Assembly (NCBI RefSeq): GCF_006345805.1
Contig: NC_042998.1
Location: 127,720,001 to 127,784,000, forward strand
Reading direction: 5' to 3'
DNA: 64,000 nucleotides
DNA from: Octopus sinensis
Taxonomy: Eukaryota
Within the stretch, counting starts at the first letter, position 1. Each line of letters starts with the position of its first letter. The translations under genes and the position numbers were made by a program. Positions 7,836-63,508 of this stretch are shown in pieces. The notes under the pieces are model-generated. The model did no database searches, was not told where the DNA came from, and saw nothing but the letters and a program-made list of their open reading frames with translations.

Positions 7836-8926
7836 CTACATTAAAATATTGGCTTTTAATTCAGCACCAATCAACATACTTGTAGGGAAATACGTGTACG
7901 TTTTATTTTTTTTTAAATATGTCAGGTTAGGTGTAGCGATAGTTATGACCAGTTAAAAACCCACAATATTATTGAGATTAATGCATTCGATATTTACTTT
8001 GAACCTCCGATGTTGATAACGAACAGAATTTCAAATTGCCAAAGACTTGTGCAAAATATAATATAATTCTAAGCTGTTTGTGTTGAATAAGTTTGTGTAT
8101 ATGCACTTTTGTGTCCGTGCCTGTGCGTGAGTGTATGTGTTCATGCCTCTATGTGTGTGTATGTCCTTGCCTCTGTGTGTGTTGTGCACGTATGAGTATT
8201 CGTGTATGTCCGAATGAGTACGTATGTACTGCCCTTAAACAGTGAAAAGATTTGCTACTCTAAATGTAGCGTAGAAAATAACAACAGGGGGACTAAGATG
8301 ATTAGTGCAGACAACGAAAAACTACTATTCAATAAATATGTAAATGGACATTTTCGTAATAAACACAAAATTTACAAACCAGGTGAATTTGTCAGTCGCA
8401 TAGAGCGAAATTATATATCATAGCTAGGAAAACTATCTCCCTCATTGACATTTATATCTTAGTCTTGTATGTATACGAATGTTATATATCACGATGTCTA
8501 GTGAAAAATGTAAAGCCGCTTTACACAAACAGATTGTTCGTTTAGATAATTTCTGTTATTTATTGGCTTGGGCACCTAGCAATATTCACATAGTTTAGCT
8601 ATACTTCTCAGAGATATGCTCAATATAAATGCAGTCTATTTTGAATTCTGCATGATATTTGTGGTATGGAAAATTTAAAGGCATTTCATAAATTCCGCGT
8701 CTAATATGATATCTTATAGTTGCTATAATAGAAGTCTTTCATCTGGGAAAATTATTATTTCGCTTGCACAAAAGTGGCATACACTCTCACACAAACAATT
8801 CATATGTAAGTACCGAAGTCTACGATATGTGTCTATATGCGTGTATATCTATCTATCTATCGATCTCTGTATATATATATATATATATATATACTTTATT
8901 TAAAGCAGCAGAAAATTCAACAAAAT

Positions 8927-8964
8927 CTGTTACTCTGAGTTTCTCGTTGCCGTTCATCAGACAG
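8927..8964 (-). ncRNA. Minimal type I hammerhead ribozyme (minus-strand mirror copy)
   Basis: Exact reverse complement of 8981-9018. Confidence 0.8.
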
Positions 8965-8980
8965 TTTTTGCTAGCAAAAA

Positions 8981-9018
8981 CTGTCTGATGAACGGCAACG
9001 AGAAACTCAGAGTAACAG
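8981..9018 (+). ncRNA. Minimal type I hammerhead ribozyme (plus-strand copy)
   Basis: ctgt-CTGATGA-acg(gcaa)cga-GAAAC-tcaga-GTA-acag. Stem I is ctgt/acag (extendable with gcaaaa/ttttgt), the stem II loop is GNRA-type, stem III is ACTC-a-GAGT, and the predicted cleavage is after GUA (9014). Confidence 0.8.
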
Positions 9019-9050
9019 ATTTTGTTGAATTTTCTGCTGCTTAAAATAAA

Positions 9051-9128
<78 letters not shown>

Positions 9129-17809: not shown

Positions 17810-18705
17810 TTCAGAGGCTGATCTTAGGATGAAGAGTTCATAGGCTGTCCAAAGCACTCTCATGGAATGTAACCAAATAGGTTTATTTTTCAACATAGTC
17901 CGTCATGCAGTCCACACAGTCCTTCCATCGATAGTACAGTGCTTGGATCCCATTGGTGACGAAGCTTTCATCCTATTGGTCAAAAAAGTTATGAACAGCA
18001 GATATGATGTCATCATCACTGTTTTTCGTGTTGCGGAACAGATAATAGTCAGATGGGGCCAACACAGGACAACAGGGAGAGTGTTCAAACAGTACAAAGT
18101 CACAGCCATGCACCGTTGCCATTGAAACCAAAAACCTTTGTTTTGGAGTTTTGTCCTGATGAAACAAGACCCCTTTTGACAGTTTTCCTGTGCGTTTTAT
18201 CTTGATAGACTTTAGTGACTGCTTAAGGAAGTTGGTGTAACACTCTCCATTGGTAGTGTATACCGTTTGAAGGTAGTCAATAAACACAATGCATTTTACG
18301 TCCCAAAACCTGAGGTCATCATTTTCCCTGAAGATAAAACGACCTTGGCCTTATTTGGAGCAGGTGAGGAGGAGTGTTTCCACTGCATGGATAGTCTCTG
18401 TGTCTTTAGTTTAAAGGGATGAGCCCAACACTCATCCTGGGCTAGGAAACTTTCAAGGAAACCAGCTGGATATGTCTCGAACAATGTTAGATTTTCCTAT
18501 GATGTGATCTGCCTGGTAGGTTTTGTGTCTTGTGTCAAAAGGGGTGGCACCCACCGACCAAAACTTTAGGGATGCCAAGTTTATTATGCACAATATTCTG
18601 AACTCTTACGTTATATGCTAATAACATTGACTATTTGATTTATACTCAATAGCCTGTAATCTGTACGATCAATGTTTTCCTCTGTGGTGGCAGCTTCTGG
18701 ACCTT
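17810..18705 (-). mobile_element. Decayed Tc1/mariner (mariner-type) transposase
   Basis: Frameshifted remnants of the mariner motifs: WVP (rc of ggcaccca), AQDECWAH (first D), VLFHQDKTP (second D), HSPCCPVLAPSDYYLF (YSPDLAPSD motif). Confidence 0.85.
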
Positions 18706-22231: not shown

Positions 22232-24846
22232 CATCACCATCATCGTCGTTTAACGTCCGCTTTCCTTGCTAGCATGGGTTAGACGATTTGACTGAGGACT
22301 GGCGAACCAGGCTCCAATATAATCTGGCAAAGTTTCTACAGCTGGATGTCCTTCCAAACGCCAACCATTCCGAGAGTGTAGTGGGTGCTTTTACGTGCCA
22401 CCGGCACGAGGGCCAGTCAGGCGGCACTGGCAACGTCCACGCTCAAGTGGTGTTTTTTACGTTCCCCCTGCACAGGATCCAATCCAGCGGCACTGACAAC
22501 AATCTCGCTCGGATGTTTTCACGTGCCACCGGCGACGCTGTTAACGATCACGCTTGAATGGTGGTTTTTACGTGTCACCGTCACGGAAGCCAGTCAGCTG
22601 CTCTGGCAGCGATCACGGTCGGATGGTGCTCTTAGCGCTCCACTGGCACGGGTGCCAGTCATCAAATTTGCGAGTTTGATTTGATTTCGATTTCACTTGC
22701 CTCGAGAGGTCTTTGCAAGAAGAGTTTAGTGTCCAATGAAGGAAAGATATGCATAAGTGGGCTGGTTACACCCCTGGCATAGGCCACAGGTTAAGGTCTC
22801 ATTTAGCTTTCCAGGTCTTCTCACGCACTGCATATTTCCAAAGGTCTCGGTCACTAGTCATTGCCTCGGTGAGTCCTAATGTTCGAAGTTCGTCCTTCAC
22901 CACCTCATTCCAGGTCTTCCTGGGTCTACCTCTTCCACAGGTTCCCTCAACAGCTAGGGTGTGGCACTTTTTCACACGGCTATCCTCATCCATTCTCACC
23001 ACATGACCAAACCAGCGCAATCGTCTTTCTTGCACACCACATCTGATGTTTCTTAGGTCCAACTTTTCTCTCAAGGCACTTACACTCTGTTGAGTATGCA
23101 CACTGACATTATACATCTATCGGAGCATACTGGCTTCATTCCATGCGAGCTTACGCATGTCCTCAGCAGTCACAGCCCATGTTTCACTGCCATGTTGCAT
23201 GGCTGTTCGTACACATGAGTCATACAGTTTACCTTTTACTCTGAGCGAGAGGTTCTTTTTCACCAGCAGAGGTAAGAGCTCTCTGTACTTTGCCCAGGAT
23301 TCTCCCGCTATTGATTTGGTCACCTGGTAAAGGAAGCTATCAACTACTTCTAGTTTTTCTCCCTGGAATGTGGTGGAAGCTGTACCACATACAAAAACTA
23401 TCTTCCCAGTTAGCCTTCCTTTGACATTTTGCACCTCTTATGTGTCCATAGCTTACACTGTGTACATCTTACAGAGTTACTACCTACACTTTTTCTACAG
23501 ATCGTGCAGGGGCATCCACCTCAAGGGATTTGTGGTTTGACTGCCTTCCTACTTATTAGGACTTTGGTTTTAGCTAGGTTGACTCTAAGGCCCTTCGATT
23601 CTAATCCTTATTTCCACACCTGAAACTTCTCCTCTAGTTCTGATAGTGACTCAGCAATTAGAGCAAGGTCGTCAGCATAGAGGAGCTCCTAGGGGCATCC
23701 TGTCTTGAATTCTTCTGTTATTGCCTGGAGAACTACGATAAATAGGAGGGGGCTGAGGACTGAACATTTTTGGTCCGCTACCTCTACACAGAATTCTTCA
23801 CTGTACTCGTTGCCAACCCTCACCTTACTGACAATGTCCCTGTACATGGCTTGCACAGCTCTCACTAACCATTCATTTATCCCTTGTTTCCTCATTGACC
23901 ACCAGATAAGGGATCGGGGGACCCTGTCAAAGGCTTTCTCCATGTCAACGAAAGCTAGGTATTTCTTCTGCAGCAGTCTTACAAGAATTATAGCATCAGT
24001 GGTGCTTTTCCCTGGCACGAACCCAAACTGCTTCTCATCTAAACTGACTCTCTCTCTCTCTTATTAGTTGGGCTATGACCTTCTCCGTGACCTTCATTAC
24101 TTGATCCAGCAATTTGATACCTCTGTAATTATTTGTATCTAAATCGTCACCTTTACCTTTGTAGCAGTTGATTATGGTGCTGCTACACCAGTCATTGGGT
24201 ATGACTCCTTCGTGTATCACCTGGTTAACTGTACGGGTGACTAGCCTCTAGCCGACACTGCCAGATATTTTGAGAATCTCTGCAGTGATTCCTGATGGGC
24301 CGAGGGCTTTCCCTGTCTTCATACTCTTAATTGCTCTATCTACCAAGCTAGTGTCAACTCGAATAGCTGGTCCCTCTCTTGGGTCGACACTCGGCAGATT
24401 CTCTTTCTCCCGTTCATAGTTGCGTCTCCAAACCTCTCTCTTTACAGCCTCATTTAGTGCAAGTGAGCCATCATCTATGCGGACACATTTCTCTCCTACG
24501 ACATCACGATTCTCTCTCACACACTGTCTTGCAACACGAAATATGTCAAGTCTTTGGTCCTCACGGCGCAGAACATTGGCAAACTTTTTCTTATCTGCTT
24601 CCCTTTGGCTAAATAAACCTGTCTTCTAGCTTCCCTTCTGGCAGACTGATACAATTCCCTGCTACCACCGTTCTTCCAGTCCTTCCTAACCTGTTTCTTT
24701 TCTCTAATAGCACTGTCAACAACATTGTTGGACCACTACGATATTTTGAGTCGAGAGAGTACTTTGCACCATCCACAGATCTGATCAGTGACCCTCAGCA
24801 AATTCTCCCGTAGAAACCTATCGCATAAATGTCCGTCAACTTTGGG

Positions 24847-38082: not shown

Positions 38083-38287
38083 GAGTAACATAGAAGTAGA
38101 GGTGTCAATTCATTACGTTGTCTGCACACACACGACAGGAATATCAGGTACAAACACCCCTGCACGGAGTCATGATATTCAATGTTCAATTAATATTGTT
38201 TTGGTGAGCGGATTATACCGAACTAGCAAGGTGCCTCAATTAAAATACCTAATTCAACTGAATCTTAATTATATTCTGTACATATAT

Positions 38288-38349
<62 letters not shown>

Positions 38350-38497
38350 AAAAGCAATAAAGATTCAAGTTAATTTAAATGAATTTACTTGAATATGGTA
38401 CCTAACTTAGATGCACCAAAAAAAAACTATACTGTTTTAACAATACAGTAATGCGGGGTGATTATAAGCGAGAAAGAAGCAACAAGAATGGATAGGT

Positions 38498-38588
38498 TTT
38501 TAGTACAATCGTTTCATACAAGGACAGGCTTTATTAAAAGTTGTAAAAATTACAGCATATAAACGTGTCCCGTACTCATCAGCTAAAA
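38498..38588 (-). ncRNA. Hammerhead ribozyme with long stem II (left arm)
   Basis: Minus strand: ttttag-CTGATGA-gtacgggaca...tgtccttgtat-GAAAC-gatt-GTA-ctaaaa; all core nucleotides intact. Confidence 0.8.
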
Positions 38589-40309
38589 TACATGTGAGTT
38601 CTCTAGACATCCTAGTGGTTGAGGCTATACTCATGAAGTAATGTAGATAATTAAGTAACATAAACAGATTTCCAAAGTTCATTACAGTTCTTTAAAGATG
38701 ATGTACAGTCTTATCACAGAATTTTAAAAAAGTTTTAATAGCATCACAGAGAAGGTGACCTAATCCATAGAGCACATATGAATTTCCAGAGATATGATGA
38801 GGGATTACATACTCACAGAAGACAAATTTATCCATTGTTAATCACAACGAGGTGGGTCTCAATTCCTACTTATTAGCATTACAGAGAGGGTGAATTAATC
38901 CTTTGTATAGATGCACAATTTCCAATGGTGTAGATGTAAATTTCCAGAGAAATGAAGAGGAATTTCATATTCACAGGCGATAAATTTATCAATGGTTGAA
39001 CACAATGAGGTAGGTATCAATTCTTGTTATATGATTAGGTATTTGCCACATTAATCACATTACTGCTATTTACAAGAGGCTGTAGCTATTTAACTTTTAA
39101 AGGCTGAAGGGCTTTCTAGAGAGGCAAAGAATAGAAAAGGGACGAGAATAGAAGAAAAGAGAGAAAATAAAGGAGGAGGGAGCAAAAAAGGGGGGGAAGG
39201 GGACTAAAAGAGAAGAGAAAAGGAAAAAGAGAATAAGAAGAAGAAAAAGAAAAAAGAGAAAAGAGAAAGAAATAGGGAAAGAAGGGAAAAAAAGAAAAAG
39301 AAAAAAAGAGGGTTCTAGTTATACAGAAGAATTAGTAGACGGCAAGTCTGGTTTTAATTTACAGGCATCTAGGAACTAGAGGAGAATATTATTCTTTGAC
39401 CAGTAAAACAGCTAATTTATTGCTGTTGAAATCAGCTATGAATTTAAAGAGAATCTAAAGAGATAACACAGTCAGGGGTTTAGGGGTCAGATGCTAAAAT
39501 CAAAAGAAAATAAATTAGGAAAATCTAAGTATAATCTTATCAAAAAGTCATTAAAATTTACTTATTTAATTTATTCATTTTATTGTCTTAAGGAGTTGCC
39601 GTTATTATTCATACATTGACGGACTACAGGTCAAATCTTAGAAGATCATTTACAAGGTGTTAGGGGATTGTCTATCATAATGAAGATAATCATATTATCA
39701 CCGAGGGGGTAGCCTTATTTATTTAATTTTGAAATAGAATTATGGGGCTATAGTAACTCATTTTATTTTATTAGAGTTATGCTACTTAAATTAGATTAAG
39801 TTAGGAATTAAAATTAAAAATTACAATTAAGATTTAAAATTAAGAATTTAAAAATTATGAGTTTGAAATTAAATAAAGCCTCAATTAAGCAGCGTATAAG
39901 TACTATTCATTTCCCTGTTATCAAAAAAACTGATGCAGATATAAGGAAAAAGATAACTGTAGTGTGAGAACTCTTAGTTATCTACTCAAAGCAGTGCTAT
40001 ACTAGTAGAAATCAAGTTATATCTATCTATCTAGTTACGGATATTCTAATCATTTAAAATATTTTAAAGTCTTCAATTTAGCGTGGACACAAACTTGACC
40101 TAGTTCGATATGGTTATTCAATAAGTTTCTATGTTTTCTATGCTTTAGAATTTCATACGTCTCCATGGAGCATAGTTGGCAACCAACCCTACTATTTTTA
40201 TACGGAATTGCTCTAATGAACTTTGGAAATCTGTTTATGTTACTTAATTATCTACATTACTTCATGAGTATAGCCTCAACCACTAGGATGTCTAGAGAAC
40301 TCACATGTA

Positions 40310-40399
40310 TTTTAGCTGATGAGTACGGGACACGTTTATATGCTGTAATTTTTACAACTTTTAATAAAGCCTGTCCTTGTATGAAACGATTGTACTAAA
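40310..40399 (+). ncRNA. Hammerhead ribozyme with long stem II (right arm)
   Basis: CTGATGA 40316-40322, GAAAC 40383-40387, GTA 40392-40394; stem I tttag/ctaaa. Confidence 0.8.
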
Positions 40400-40425
40400 C
40401 CTATCCATTGTTGCTTCTTTCTCGC

Positions 40426-40486
<61 letters not shown>

Positions 40487-40489
<3 letters not shown>

Positions 40490-40823
40490 GGTAAAGACCT
40501 CCTTCGGTCATGAATGACCATGGGATTGCACCCAGAAAGTTACCCTCCTAGACACAAGTCCGGGCAAGGTTGTTTATGGAAGACCAGCAGTCGCCCATGC
40601 ATACCAGCCTCCCCTCTCCACGCCACCAGTGTTATCCAAGGGAAGGACAAAGGTCGATACAGCTTAGCACCAGTGACGTCGCAACTCATTTCTACAGCTG
40701 AGTGAACTGGAGCAACGTGAAATAAAGTGCCTTGCTCAAGAACACAACACGCAGCCCGGTCCGGGATTCGAGCTCACAACCTCACGATCGTAAGCTCCAC
40801 GCTCTAACCACTGAGACATGCGC
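40487..40823 (-). mobile_element. tRNA-derived CORE-type SINE (identical duplicate at 41169-41505)
   Basis: rc: ctcagtggttagagcg (A box)...gagctcgaatcccgg (B box), then gtgttcttgagcaaggcactttatttcacgttgctccagttcactcagctgtagaaatgag, which resembles the MIR/CORE domain known from octopus OR-type SINEs. Confidence 0.85.
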
Positions 40824-40839
40824 ATATAATATATATATT

Positions 40840-40870
<31 letters not shown>

Positions 40871-40986
40871 TGACATGGCCGCAGAATGTGTTCCTGGATT
40901 CTCAGAGTCTGTTTATGTTACTAATTATCTACATTACTTCATGAGTATAGCCTCAACCACTAGGATGTCTAGAGAACTCACATGTA

Positions 40987-41076
40987 TTTTAGCTGATGAG
41001 TACGGGACACGTTTATATGCTGTAATTTTTACAACTTTTAATAAAGCTGTCCTTGTATGAAACGATTGTACTAAAA
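40987..41076 (+). ncRNA. Third copy of the same hammerhead (inside the tandem duplication)
   Basis: CTGATGA 40993-40999, GAAAC 41059-41063, GTA 41068-41070. Confidence 0.7.
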
Positions 41077-41106
41077 ACCTATCCATTCTTGTTGCTTCTT
41101 TCTCGC

Positions 41107-41172
<66 letters not shown>

Positions 41173-41501
41173 GTAAAGACCTCCTTCGGTCATGAATGAC
41201 CATGGGATTGCACCCAGAAAGTTACCCTCCTAGACACAAGTCCGGGCAAGGTTGTTTATGGAAGACCAGCAGTCGCCCATGCATACCAGCCTCCCCTCTC
41301 CACGCCACCAGTGTTATCCAAGGGAAGGACAAAGGTCGATACAGCTTAGCACCAGTGACGTCGCAACTCATTTCTACAGCTGAGTGAACTGGAGCAACGT
41401 GAAATAAAGTGCCTTGCTCAAGAACACAACACGCAGCCCGGTCCGGGATTCGAGCTCACAACCTCACGATCGTAAGCTCCACGCTCTAACCACTGAGACA
41501 T

Positions 41502-41540
<39 letters not shown>

Positions 41541-41543
<3 letters not shown>

Positions 41544-42236
41544 ACATGGCCCGCAGAATGTGTTCCTGGATTCTCAGAACTTTCCAGTCGAGAGATATCC
41601 ACACCATTATCCTTCTCTTCTCCACTTTTGCCCGACCCCACCTTGAATACTGTTGTCCACTGTGGTCTCCCCACACAATACAAAGTATCATAAAAGTAGA
41701 AGCACCTCAAAGGGCAATCACAAAAACGATAGATGGCATGACAGGCCTCGACTATTGGGGTCGACTAGAAAAGCTAAAACTTTATTCTCTCCAACGTCGT
41801 CGTGAGCGCTACATCATCTGCATGATGTGGAAAATATTCCATCAGCATTGCCCAAATGATGTTGGCATCACCTTTAAGGTACATCCAAGGCTTGGGCCCC
41901 GTGCCATCCGCCCAAAACAAAAATTGCACTCTCATCTCATAACAACAATACGGCACAACTATTTCACCTCAATTGGCCCCGCTCTCTTTAACATTACACC
42001 AAAACACATTAAAACAGAAACTGACCCTATAGGGTTCAAGAAGTCTTTGGACAGATTCCTTCAAGAAATCCCGGATAAACCCCCTACACCCGGATATGTC
42101 TCTGTAAACAATAACTCTCTACTTGAGTGGGCCATAGTGCCCAAATTCTGACTTGAAAGACTTCACCAGGTGGTGCTATTAAGTTAGACATGGCCTGGGC
42201 CAATAATGGCCGAAACCTATCAAAGTATCAAAGTAT
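41541..42236 (+). mobile_element. 5'-truncated CR1-group LINE with an uninterrupted ORF2 C-terminal frame (to 42151) and 3' UTR
   Basis: RPHLEYCCPLWSP...LEKLKLYSLQRRRERY...FKKSLDRFL; ends in the short tandem tail (atcaaagt)2. Confidence 0.9.
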
Positions 42237-53491: not shown

Positions 53492-53812
53492 ATCGTGGCA
53501 CTGCGTCAGTTACGACGACGAGGGTTCCAGTTGAACCGATTAACGGAACATTCTGCTCGTGAAATTAACGTGCAAGTGGCTTAACACTCCACACACACGT
53601 GTACCCTTAACGTAGTTCTCGGGGAGATTCAGGGTGACACAGAGTGTGACAAGACTCGCCCTTTGCAATACAGGTACAACAGAAATAGGATGAAAGAGTA
53701 AGGGAAAGTTGTGGTGAAAGAGTACAGCAGGGTTCGCCACACCCTCTGCCGGAGCCTCGTGGAGCTTTAGGTGTTTTCGCTCAATAAACACTCACGACGC
53801 CCGGTCTAGGAA
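53492..53812 (-). mobile_element. SINE family C, near full length; head cut at the B box by the adjacent hairpin
   Basis: gtggcactgcgtcagttacgacgacgagggttccag...gcccggtctaggaatc; matches 25225-25425. Confidence 0.8.
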
Positions 53813-54028
53813 TCTTCATATTTGGATTCCTCTACAATTTTCATTAGCCCTACCCCTTATATACCTTCATGATACTCTATGTCTTCAATATAATCTTACT
53901 TAACATATATATGTATTTCTATTCATTTCTATATGTTAAGTAAGATTATATTCAAGATCTAGAGTATCATGGAGGTATATAAGAGATAGGGGTAGTGAAA
54001 ATTGTAGAGGAATCCAGACCTGAAGATT
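53811..54028. repeat. Fold-back inverted repeat, 99-bp arms, 20-nt loop
   Basis: 53811-53909 versus the rc of 53930-54028: colinear, about 11 mismatches by manual comparison, no indels. Confidence 0.9.
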
Positions 54029-54299
54029 GCGAGAATGTCGACCCGATCAATATCGATGTACTTTCATGAAACACGTGCAGTCTTATAAACTGAAAATACG
54101 TGATTCAGAATAGATTTAGTTAGTATAAGATTTAATATTTAACATTTTATGGTGTGGTTGATTGAGTTGAAGGTGGTTCTGTCTCTTAAACTAATTTTAT
54201 ATATACGAATTATACATTGAGAGATGTTCATTTTAGTACATCTAATTTGAATGTCTTTTCCTCTGCACTCGGAAGTAATATTCCCTAATAATTATAATC

Positions 54300-61298: not shown

Positions 61299-62089
61299 TT
61301 CCTAGAAAATATTGTTTAAAGACTTAATGGCTTTAAATTCAAGGTAATGGATTACTAACCACAGGATAATGAGATCAAAACTTCGTGTTGGACTTCCACT
61401 CTATACAATAACATTATACATACATCTCAGTCTACTTGACTTTCAAATATTTACAATTATAATTTGAAATTGAATGGTTAGCAGTAACAAAGATGTCCAG
61501 ATTTCTTTAAATATTATTGTGCAAAATATACTGAGAAAAAGTATATTCTTCACCCCAACAAGATACACACACACACAGTTGTCCCTGTAGTAACTTGTGC
61601 TACAACAAATAACAGTCAAATCTCTCCTAAAACACATCGTTTCATCATAAGAAAGGCAGAGTTATAGTATTTCAGTAAGAAAAAAATTATGCGATGCGTC
61701 TGCAACTGTGGGCTAAACAAACACAGACAAACATACTTCACATTAAACAATTATCTAATAAATAATACTAATAATGTTGACGGTATATCTTCGAAATTTC
61801 ATTCCCTGGTGAAACTCCATGTATCGTAAGGTCGTTTATGCAGAGTTGTCTCCCTTAGTAGAAAGAGCTCAAAATTTTGCGATCCGACCTCGTTTTCAAG
61901 GTTATTTTTGTAGTAAAAAAGAGCTTATGCACAACAAACATACTTTATTTGGTAGCCGTAATATTACTGAATGTTTTGAAACCTCATACGTCAAAATTGG
62001 CGCCTCAGTTTTCGAATCTATGAAGAACATACGCACACAAACATACACATACACAAACCTTGTTTTATTATATAAAATATATATATAAG

Positions 62090-63095
62090 AATGGAGTTAA
62101 GAATGTTACCTGGTTCGAGTGAGATTTTACGTTTTGTCCCGTTGATATAGAGGCCTGGAGTTTCGAGGATTTCCCATGAGATCGAGTATGGAATCCCATT
62201 GTCTCTTAGCTGCTTGACATGACTGGCAAGCGATGTTACGTATATCCTTTCCGATACATCCGATGTATTTCCCTGGGCGCCTGTTGTCGGTGCTGCACCT
62301 GTTGTTGTTGTTGTTGTTGTTATTGTTGTTGTTGTTATTGTTGTTGTTTTTGTTGTCACTGTTGTTGCTGCAGCTGTCACCGATATTGCTATTCCTGGGG
62401 CTGGGGCTACTGTTGTTGGCGTCGGTAATGTTATCGCTTCTGCCATTTATGCTAAAGGCGCTGTTGTTGTTAATATTGTTGTTATTGTTGTTGATGTTAT
62501 TGCGGTCTTCGCTAGTGGTGGGGGACTTGCTACTGCTGCTAGAGGTGTCATTAGCTGGTGTTGCTGCTTGGGCTGCTGTTACTGCCGTTATAGCTGGTGT
62601 TGTCACACTGGATCTGTTACTGCTGCTATAAGAGTTGTCACGTAACATCGCTGGCCAGCTACGTCTGACAAGTAAAAGACGATAGAATCTTATACTCGAT
62701 ATCATGCAAAATCCTTGAGAACCCAGGCCTCTACATCAACGAAATGAAGCGTTGCAAGTTATGCATAGCTGAATGCGCGAGAATCGTAAAAGAGTCGCTA
62801 GCACCAGGGAGCATCCTTAACTCCAAAACGGAAATTTTCGGGTCCTGTTTACATTTTAGGAAATTTCTGCTAGTATTTTGGGACCTGCAAGATGGCGGCA
62901 CAACCAGAAATCGATACACAATAGCAAAGGGAAATAATCCCCTATTGTTTACTTTTGTAGCGAGGCTTTTCCCCCTCCATATTTTGAAGAGGTTTTAGGC
63001 GAACAGGTGTTGGAATTTGACGATAGACCTTAAAGCTAAACCCTTTAGGGACGGAAAACGCAAGGTAATCCCATAAACCGGCCTTCCCCACTTTT
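62090..63095. mobile_element. Penelope-like element remnant: GIY-YIG endonuclease C-terminus as an inverted pair
   Basis: Minus strand: GKYIG...VTSLASHVKQLRDNGIPYSISWEILETPGLYINGTKR...ILNS. Plus strand from 62641: VTSLASYV*QVKDDRILYSISCKILENPGLYINEMKRCKLCIAEC...ILNSKTEIFGSCLHFRKFLL. This matches the PLE pattern I-x-W-x-IL...KRC-x-LC...LN-x-x-x-E...C-x-H. Confidence 0.8.
63012..63071 (+). ncRNA. Decayed hammerhead-like motif downstream of the GIY-YIG remnant
   Basis: ggaat-TTGACGA-...ccttaaag/ctttaggg...-GAAA-acgcaag-GTA-atcc, located where PLE pLTRs normally carry an HHR. Confidence 0.45.
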
Positions 63096-63098
63096 AAT

Positions 63099-63158
<60 letters not shown>

Positions 63159-63508
63159 TATTATATAACAAAACAAAGTTTTTGTGTATGTGCGCGTGTT
63201 CCTTATGGATTCGAAAACTGAGGTGCCGATTTTGACGTACGATGTATCAAAACATTCAGTAATCTTACGGCTACCAAATAACGTATGTTTTTTGTTAATA
63301 AGTTCTTTTTTACTACAAAAATAACCTCGAAAACGAGGTCGGATCCCACAATTTTGAACTCCTTCTACTCTGAACGACCTAAAAATACATGGAGTTTCAC
63401 CAGGGAATGAAACTTCGAAGATATATCGTCAATATTATTAGTATTAGTATCCCTCTACATCTTAGAGTGTGCTTCTTCTCCGGATTTATATTTCCTACAA
63501 ACGATCCC

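Follow-up and report, generated by a model that had tools for sequence, protein, structure and literature searches.

A 64,000-nucleotide stretch of Octopus sinensis DNA, referred to here as the window, contains a 2-kb segment bounded by near-identical inverted arms, each of which holds a hammerhead ribozyme motif facing outward. What kind of element leaves such a structure: a MITE, a non-autonomous retroelement that moves with both arms, or a coding retrotransposon? With a probability of roughly 85%, positions 38350 to 40431 represent one insertion, dead but recent, of a Hydra-clade Penelope-like element (PLE) that encodes protein; a 5'-truncated minus-strand copy is joined here to a short, inverted duplicate of its 3' end. 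Directly seen are the component parts and the order in which they lie, the motif of the endonuclease, a multi-copy interior, and both family ends at (TA)n. The literature basis also includes PMC4209133, PMC13282606, and PMC8969392.

Architecture of the insertion

The segment lies between two (TA)n runs, at 38282 to 38346 on the left and 40427 to 40486 on the right. The left run is the likely insertion target, and (TA)n at 38350 also terminates contigs from two public sequencing runs (X1 and X6). On the minus strand, the 3' terminal region of the element forms the left arm (38463 to 38684), as defined by arm alignment and contigs. Beyond this arm lies a tail of 113 nt (38350 to 38462, minus strand) that is present in runs X1, X6, and X11, and the family ends at 38350 and 38463. 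The remainder of the long 3' untranslated region (UTR; 38685 to 40049, minus strand) is multi-copy in four runs and includes an 85-bp duplication (38781 to 38865 and 38939 to 39023; 82% identical) and a 192-nt tract (39120 to 39311) that is 95% pyrimidine on the minus strand. Upstream of the UTR are the C-terminal 53 codons and stop codon of a Hydra-clade GIY-YIG endonuclease open reading frame (ORF; 40050 to 40213, minus strand), assigned from its motif and variants, with the 5' truncation point at 40213. At the 40213/40214 junction, the minus-strand copy meets the right arm (40214 to 40431, plus strand), an inverted, 5'-truncated copy of the element's 3' end without the tail. The tail is found on the left side alone: the left arm is followed by the 113 nt and then (TA)n, and the right arm abuts (TA)n directly. 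No target-site duplication is readable within (TA)n. By analogy with the tail concept of PMC11167929, we infer a putative second reverse-transcription start site at 38350. The left limit given in an earlier note on this DNA (38468) required revision, as the tail adds 113 nt.

When 38463 to 38684 was reverse-complemented and aligned with 40214 to 40431, 0 substitutions were found over 213 aligned bases (40214 to 40426). The single substitution between the arms is at the outer edge, at 40427, and the right arm has two deletions (2 and 3 nt). Because one of the deletions shortens stem I of the ribozyme, this stem has 5 bp in the right arm. At the two polymorphic sites listed for the arm, the alleles agree between left and right, as a single template would produce. 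The near-identity of the arms points to a young insertion, in agreement with the recent origin already proposed.

A third arm copy (40912 to 41107, plus strand; hammerhead core at 40993), overlooked previously, is also present. It is contained within a 677-bp tandem duplication that takes in the right arm together with flanking DNA (40230 to 40911 and 40912 to 41579), the units of which differ by small indels only. Each unit comprises the arm, (TA)n, a SINE, (TA)n, and the start of a LINE, with one extra base at the junction. The duplication, which is either real or an assembly artifact, places two plus-strand hammerheads 677 nt apart, and these could form a dimer.

The end of an endonuclease ORF

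The interior had been described as devoid of ORFs; instead, the end of an endonuclease ORF is present on the minus strand (53 codons at 40211 to 40053, with a stop codon at 40052 to 40050). The 53-amino-acid C terminus fits the pattern Y-x6-C-x-L-C-x2-E-x12,14-L-N-x3-E-x4-C-x-H. In the six frames of the window, this pattern was matched twice (at 40211 to 40053 and in a remnant at 62732), against 4e-9 matches expected; the pattern was composed after the peptide had been noticed, with fixed residues and spacing range taken from the published Hydra rows of PMC8557442. By eye, the CxLC..E..LN block appears in 4/4 Hydra rows and 0/30 other rows of Fig. S2 of that paper, which names CxxC and CxH around conserved E and N as a Hydra feature. 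The likeness to the Hydra endonuclease is one of pattern and of rows compared by eye, rather than of a computed alignment to a published Hydra protein. Pairwise comparison of the peptide with the 62.7-kb remnant gave E=1e-4. Atlas analysis of the peptide (recognition 2660) returned GIY-YIG PF01541 as the nearest family-bearing cluster (46% of members; score, 0.80), which we regard as a lead only.

Variation listed from the contigs is biased toward synonymous changes. Among listed variants in the ORF end (n = 5), four are synonymous (P=0.006 versus all changes; 0.019 on the 4 transitions alone); this test rests on 5 sites, and these counts refer to the 40 of 72 variant sites that are listed. 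No indel occurs among the listed variants in the ORF end, and 5/6 of the listed indels in 39312 to 40049 are not multiples of three. No reverse transcriptase (RT) and no GIY-YIG core were seen in this copy, of which 53 codons survive. On the features that survive, namely the endonuclease end, the hammerhead, and (TA)n, the element is placed in the Hydra clade.

The 53-residue peptide had no match in Pfam, PHROGs, a word-based protein search, or viral or prokaryote contigs. With stops in all six frames written as X, Pfam gave three weak non-PLE matches (0 at the cutoff) and PHROGs gave 0/7. The Pfam and PHROGs blanks carry little weight because both also miss the recognizable endonuclease remnant at 62.7 kb. 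The ORF at 62.7 kb had no homologue and no Atlas match, and an arm ORF (40099 to 40395) likewise had no homologue. We note that a plus-strand frame antisense to the element (39314 to 40210) has 12 stops versus 26 expected. It returned 0 matches among 1.84 billion proteins and has no codon-position bias; it is possibly a decayed captured ORF.

Measured from the stop codon, the ribozyme lies 1,467 nt away, and the 3' UTR is 1,587 nt long if it ends with the arm and 1,700 nt if the tail is included. A full-length element is predicted to be near 3.7 kb, i.e., above 3 kb, with the UTR alone accounting for 1.6 to 1.7 kb.

The family in public sequencing runs

At least half of the words of 38349 to 40213 are present in 20 runs from 8 studies and 4 organism labels. 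Four of these runs (X1, X6, X11, and X18; 4 labels, 3 studies), all consisting of contigs, were examined in detail; X1 may be the source of the window. The interior is repetitive, as the earlier note had anticipated, with 27 to 29 of 30 bins covered in each of these 4 public runs. Summed contig depth is highest on the left arm and falls over the first 11 bins (rho -0.98, -0.95, -0.95, and -0.59); inward of these bins, depth is 4 to 42 times lower, values that describe a pattern and not copy number. Loose contig ends in (TA)n are found at 38463 in 4/4 runs and at 38350 in 2/4 (X1 and X6), and the joint between left arm and body is bridged by X11 record 10 and X18 record 17. Past 40213, contigs continue for 190 (X6), 155 (X18), and 22 (X11) further letters that match no other place of the stretch. 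Because the arm was part of the stretch searched, this overhang is not arm, and the right arm probably arose as an inverted copy specific to this insertion and is no fixed part of the family. The contig pattern is that of a 5'-truncating retroelement whose 3' end lies to the left and which, in the present copy, breaks off at 40213. Taken together, the endonuclease ORF end, polar contig coverage, ends at (TA)n, and non-arm overhang indicate that the element is most likely a 5'-truncated coding Hydra-clade PLE.

No single listed contig spans the whole stretch. One bin (39231 to 39293) had no coverage in 4/4 runs; repeats were skipped there, and the bin is uninformative either way. No strand-changing joint at 40213 was found among the contigs listed, which show presence and not absence. 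Variant density in the arm (2/218) did not differ significantly from that in the body (31/1337; P=0.31). No RNA run is listed among the holders of 38349 to 40213 words, and a scan of metagenomes with a 16-nt motif returned 120 loci, all attributable to chance (best BLAST match, 22 nt). In X18 (organism label D), the arm ends at (TA)n without a tail; this run contributes 10 records only and is silent on the absence of the tail.

The polar depth could be read differently if the segment were a composite, with the Hydra ORF end and distal UTR (39312 to 40213) joined locally to a short hammerhead family of different origin (38350 to about 39120) across the purine tract. Such a composite would account for a left part much deeper than the right and for a UTR that would otherwise be unusually long, and collinearity across 39120 to 39311 in other copies is not demonstrated by the contigs. 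However, depth is similar on both sides of the tract (9.1 and 10.0 in X6; 5.4 and 3.1 to 4.9 in X18) and declines gradually, as in 5' truncation. The distal part would also be without a hammerhead of its own, though this motif is called universal in Hydra elements (PMC8557442). We therefore consider a composite improbable.

The earlier note favored a non-autonomous family with inverted terminal repeats (pLTRs), the interior and both arms forming a fixed unit. Near-identical arms and 1.4 kb of non-coding interior with frame-shifting indels suit a 2-kb PLE derivative that moves in this way, or a deletion derivative with an ORF vestige, and both non-autonomous PLEs and pLTR-framed cargo are published. 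Nevertheless, this proposal was not sustained and appears quite improbable: contigs of X6, X18, and X11 pass 40213 into non-arm sequence, the ends are asymmetric (with the tail on one side) and the depth polar, and the copy stops inside an endonuclease ORF whose end is intact and whose variation is biased toward synonymous changes. A MITE or other cut-and-paste DNA element with 215-bp terminal inverted repeats (TIRs) and a TA target duplication, suggested by the inverted arms and TA flanks, is hardly credible, being already contradicted by the one-sided tail, two family ends, polar depth, hammerhead cores, and PLE endonuclease end; the element was not found to be symmetric, of fixed length, or to terminate at its inverted repeats, and the earlier preference for a Penelope-like retroelement over a MITE stands.

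The hammerhead motifs

Each arm of the retrotransposon copy contains a complete, outward-facing type I hammerhead motif, with core boxes, three helices, and NUH site all present. The left motif (38498 to 38588, minus strand; core at 38582) has a 6-bp stem I, a 60-nt helix II region, and a 2-bp palindromic stem III; the right motif (40311 to 40399, plus strand; core at 40316) has a 5-bp stem I. Both were identified by descriptor and folding. In both arms the core boxes are 60 nt apart, and cleavage is predicted after 38504 and 40394. Stem III consists of 2 bp within a self-complementary 8-mer containing two G:U pairs, and helix II has a G:U pair at its base. A strict descriptor retrieved three sites in the window (both arms and the third copy at 40993) and 0 in 30/30 shuffled windows. 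These results uphold most of what had been noted from the sequence, namely a conserved hammerhead with a complete outward-facing core in each arm, an unusually long (~60-nt) stem II, a self-complementary stem III with G:U wobbles, and an expected cut after 40394; a 6-bp stem I is correct for the left arm and third copy but not for the right arm. The core lies 119 and 232 nt from the element's two 3' ends (38463 and 38350, respectively), and the one at 38582 is the sole hammerhead core 3' of the endonuclease stop on the minus strand. One listed variant falls within the ribozyme, changing a U-A pair of the distal hairpin to U:G. No hammerhead appears among the 150 of 177 Rfam matches listed, which include only microsatellite-driven miRNA matches.

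Are these ribozymes likely to act at this locus? Nearest-neighbor folding, which models neither tertiary contacts nor magnesium, places the active monomer 5.6 (left and third copies) and 7.0 (right) kcal/mol above the free ensemble, corresponding to predicted active fractions near 1e-4 and 1e-5. When the plus-strand RNA is folded as a tandem, the dimer gains 5 kcal/mol over two monomers, yet stays 9 kcal/mol above the free ensemble. RNA that reads through the insertion, from either strand, is predicted to pair arm to arm over 212 bases, spanning the whole ribozyme. Because the monomer fold is disfavored and read-through RNA would pair arm with arm, the models make it unlikely that each strand's transcript trims itself at its 3' end, as the earlier note had proposed. 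Published accounts are compatible with this view: minimal PLE hammerheads showed no cleavage as monomers in vitro, and the hammerhead of the Anolis Poseidon element PAc needed protein (PMC11167929). We infer that the ribozyme depends on dimer formation or on protein, that it would process tandem RNA precursors from full-length copies, and that it has little action here. In a separate observation, the 5' strand of stem I (38588 to 38583, minus strand; 40310 to 40315, plus strand) resembles a splice acceptor, a resemblance common by chance in AT-rich DNA; in Drosophila virilis Penelope, the intron ends at the 5' boundary of helix I.

Comparison with known elements

The closest similarities are to the Hydra clade of C-terminal EN+ PLEs as presented by Craig et al. 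(2021; PMC8557442), with examples such as Penelope-13_HM, Penelope-17_HM, and Hydra-1_Obim. Shared features are the C-terminal CxxC-E-N-CxH endonuclease end, the (TA)n flanks, and a sense-strand type I hammerhead near the 3' end with a palindromic stem III. Penelope-13_HM is also described there with an inverted 5'-truncated copy that results in a hammerhead on each strand. Other Hydra traits given in that source are an RT with RWK and DKT, a GIY-YIG core, a CxCX5C linker, and no CCHH. In contrast, the 3' UTR of 1,587 to 1,700 nt is at least five times as long as published Hydra UTRs (roughly 100 to 300 nt, by eye, in six consensuses of File S7). Similarly, the core boxes are 60 nt apart here, whereas none of the 26 Hydra rows of File S2 exceeds 26 nt; a spacing of 54 nt occurs in one row outside the Hydra clade, which is flagged as deviating. 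The predicted full length near 3.7 kb exceeds the "generally <3 kb" of Hydra elements, a typical and not a strict value. The hammerhead sequence differs from that of Hydra-1_Obim, and the family's 16-nt core motif had 0 matches in the supplement of PMC8557442.

Like Pen1 and Pen2 of Adineta vaga (PMC3846280), the insertion is a 5'-truncated copy between inverted repeats (pLTRs of ~212 to 218 bp in those elements) with a one-sided tail, and Pen1 also has 0.9 to 1.5 kb of non-coding DNA before its 3' pLTR. Those elements, however, belong to the Penelope/Poseidon group and have a 31-bp tail; Pen1 spacers vary between copies, whereas the UTR here is common to four organism labels. The pLTR of Pen1 and Pen2 contains the first ORF codons, and none were seen in the arms here. 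The Penelope/Poseidon group is marked by first ORF codons in the pLTR and tail and by no CxxC before the conserved E, and the octopus element differs from it in these features. PAc (PMC11167929) likewise has a hammerhead in its terminal repeat, an AT-rich target, and two RT start sites, which for the octopus element are inferred. Its ORF starts inside the ribozyme, whereas in the octopus element each of the three frames is closed inside the ribozyme or shortly beyond it. The PAc tail is 30 to 40 nt compared with 113 nt.

Non-LTR retrozymes (PMC7229834; bioRxiv 10.64898/2026.07.22.740005) share a type I hammerhead with a weak palindromic stem III but are short head-to-tail non-coding repeats, whereas the insertion here is inverted and bears an ORF. 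The one tandem-looking part is the local duplication of 677 bp, most of which is SINE, microsatellite, and LINE DNA. Naiad elements have an N-terminal endonuclease, an RT at the C terminus, and no canonical hammerhead; here, the ORF ends in the endonuclease and a full hammerhead is present. Naiad_Obim/Ovul was considered as a partner and rejected, as no match to Naiad 3' ends was found by eye or motif search.

Other features in the window

A 232-bp imperfect palindrome (53805 to 54034; 84%) contains no hammerhead by the strict descriptor. At 41575 to 42151 (plus strand), a 247-codon open frame without a Pfam match resembles the C-terminal part of a CR1/L2-type LINE ORF. The frames at 22800 to 24625 (minus strand) resemble a decayed RTE-like LINE RT. 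A mariner transposase remnant is located at 17900 to 18350 (minus strand; Pfam PF01359, E=3e-7).

The 38350 to 40431 element had been called the larger relative of a palindrome at 8.9 kb. The two are alike in architecture, but no sequence likeness was found between them. The fold-back at 8844 to 9101 has arms of about 80 bp between (TA)n runs and a hammerhead core on each strand, with a helix II that looks weak; by eye, the Hydra-2_aMil row in File S2 of PMC8557442 has similar stems I and III. It represents a different family with the same insertion style.

An older Hydra-type endonuclease C terminus with an inverted partial copy is found at 62640 to 63096 (plus strand; motif at 62732) and about 62090 to 62260 (minus strand). 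This remnant lies inside 81%-identical inverted repeats (61763 to 62087 and 63145 to 63446), has a degenerate hammerhead-like motif near 63018, and by eye resembles Hydra-1_Obim (PMC8557442). This likeness and the SINE next to the 38350 to 40431 element would suit an octopus-type cephalopod host.

Proposed origin and implications

To produce the observed arrangement, the RT-endonuclease of an intact master copy would nick both strands of the (TA)n run, and two cDNAs would be primed on the same uncut RNA. The cDNA from the distal start site would provide the tail and 1.86 kb, and that from the proximal site 218 nt; both would stop early, and their 5' ends would be joined at 40213/40214. One hammerhead per strand, facing outward, would be a by-product. 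Because all parts 3' of the predicted cut are kept in copies, the template was likely uncut there. There is precedent for such activity: a Poseidon protein, once purified, cuts both strands of DNA and extends them, starting at two internal sites of the RNA; these sites delimit the tail, and ribozyme cleavage is not required (PMC11167929). Inverted 5'-truncated copies and one-sided tails are routine among PLEs (including PMC3846280), full-length copies of PLEs carry a direct pLTR that stems from a partial tandem, and (TA)n targets are listed for 26/27 Hydra families (PMC8557442). The 5' truncation, inverted 5'-truncated copy, and one-sided tail (113 nt rather than 30 to 40) are all present here.

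Outward ribozymes in inverted arms are a known by-product of PLE insertion; thus, the main claim is an ordinary one. The feature is real and its architecture already published, and what is unusual is the 1.6- to 1.7-kb 3' UTR, the 113-nt tail, and the 60-nt helix II region. No description of this family was found in the literature consulted or in the supplement of PMC8557442; Repbase, Dfam, and species repeat libraries may list it. As a caution, insertions of this type can be misannotated as MITEs or non-autonomous elements. So far, the two-start-site model has been demonstrated for a single Poseidon element, in vitro. A natural setting in which to examine it is provided by this young Hydra-clade family, which occurs in multiple species and whose two ends, clearly marked, lie 113 nt from each other at (TA)n.

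The ribozyme variant is without a match among the Rfam matches listed, and a search with a 7- to 17-nt spacer would miss it. It is conceivable, though doubtful at present, that the family is an active lineage of the Hydra clade with a 3' UTR expanded to 1.7 kb and with a hammerhead that standard ribozyme models miss, its helix II being branched and 60 nt long. If the ribozyme cleaves, PLE ribozymes would be undercounted, and the long helix II may be a protein-binding or switching element linking cleavage to the two RT start sites.
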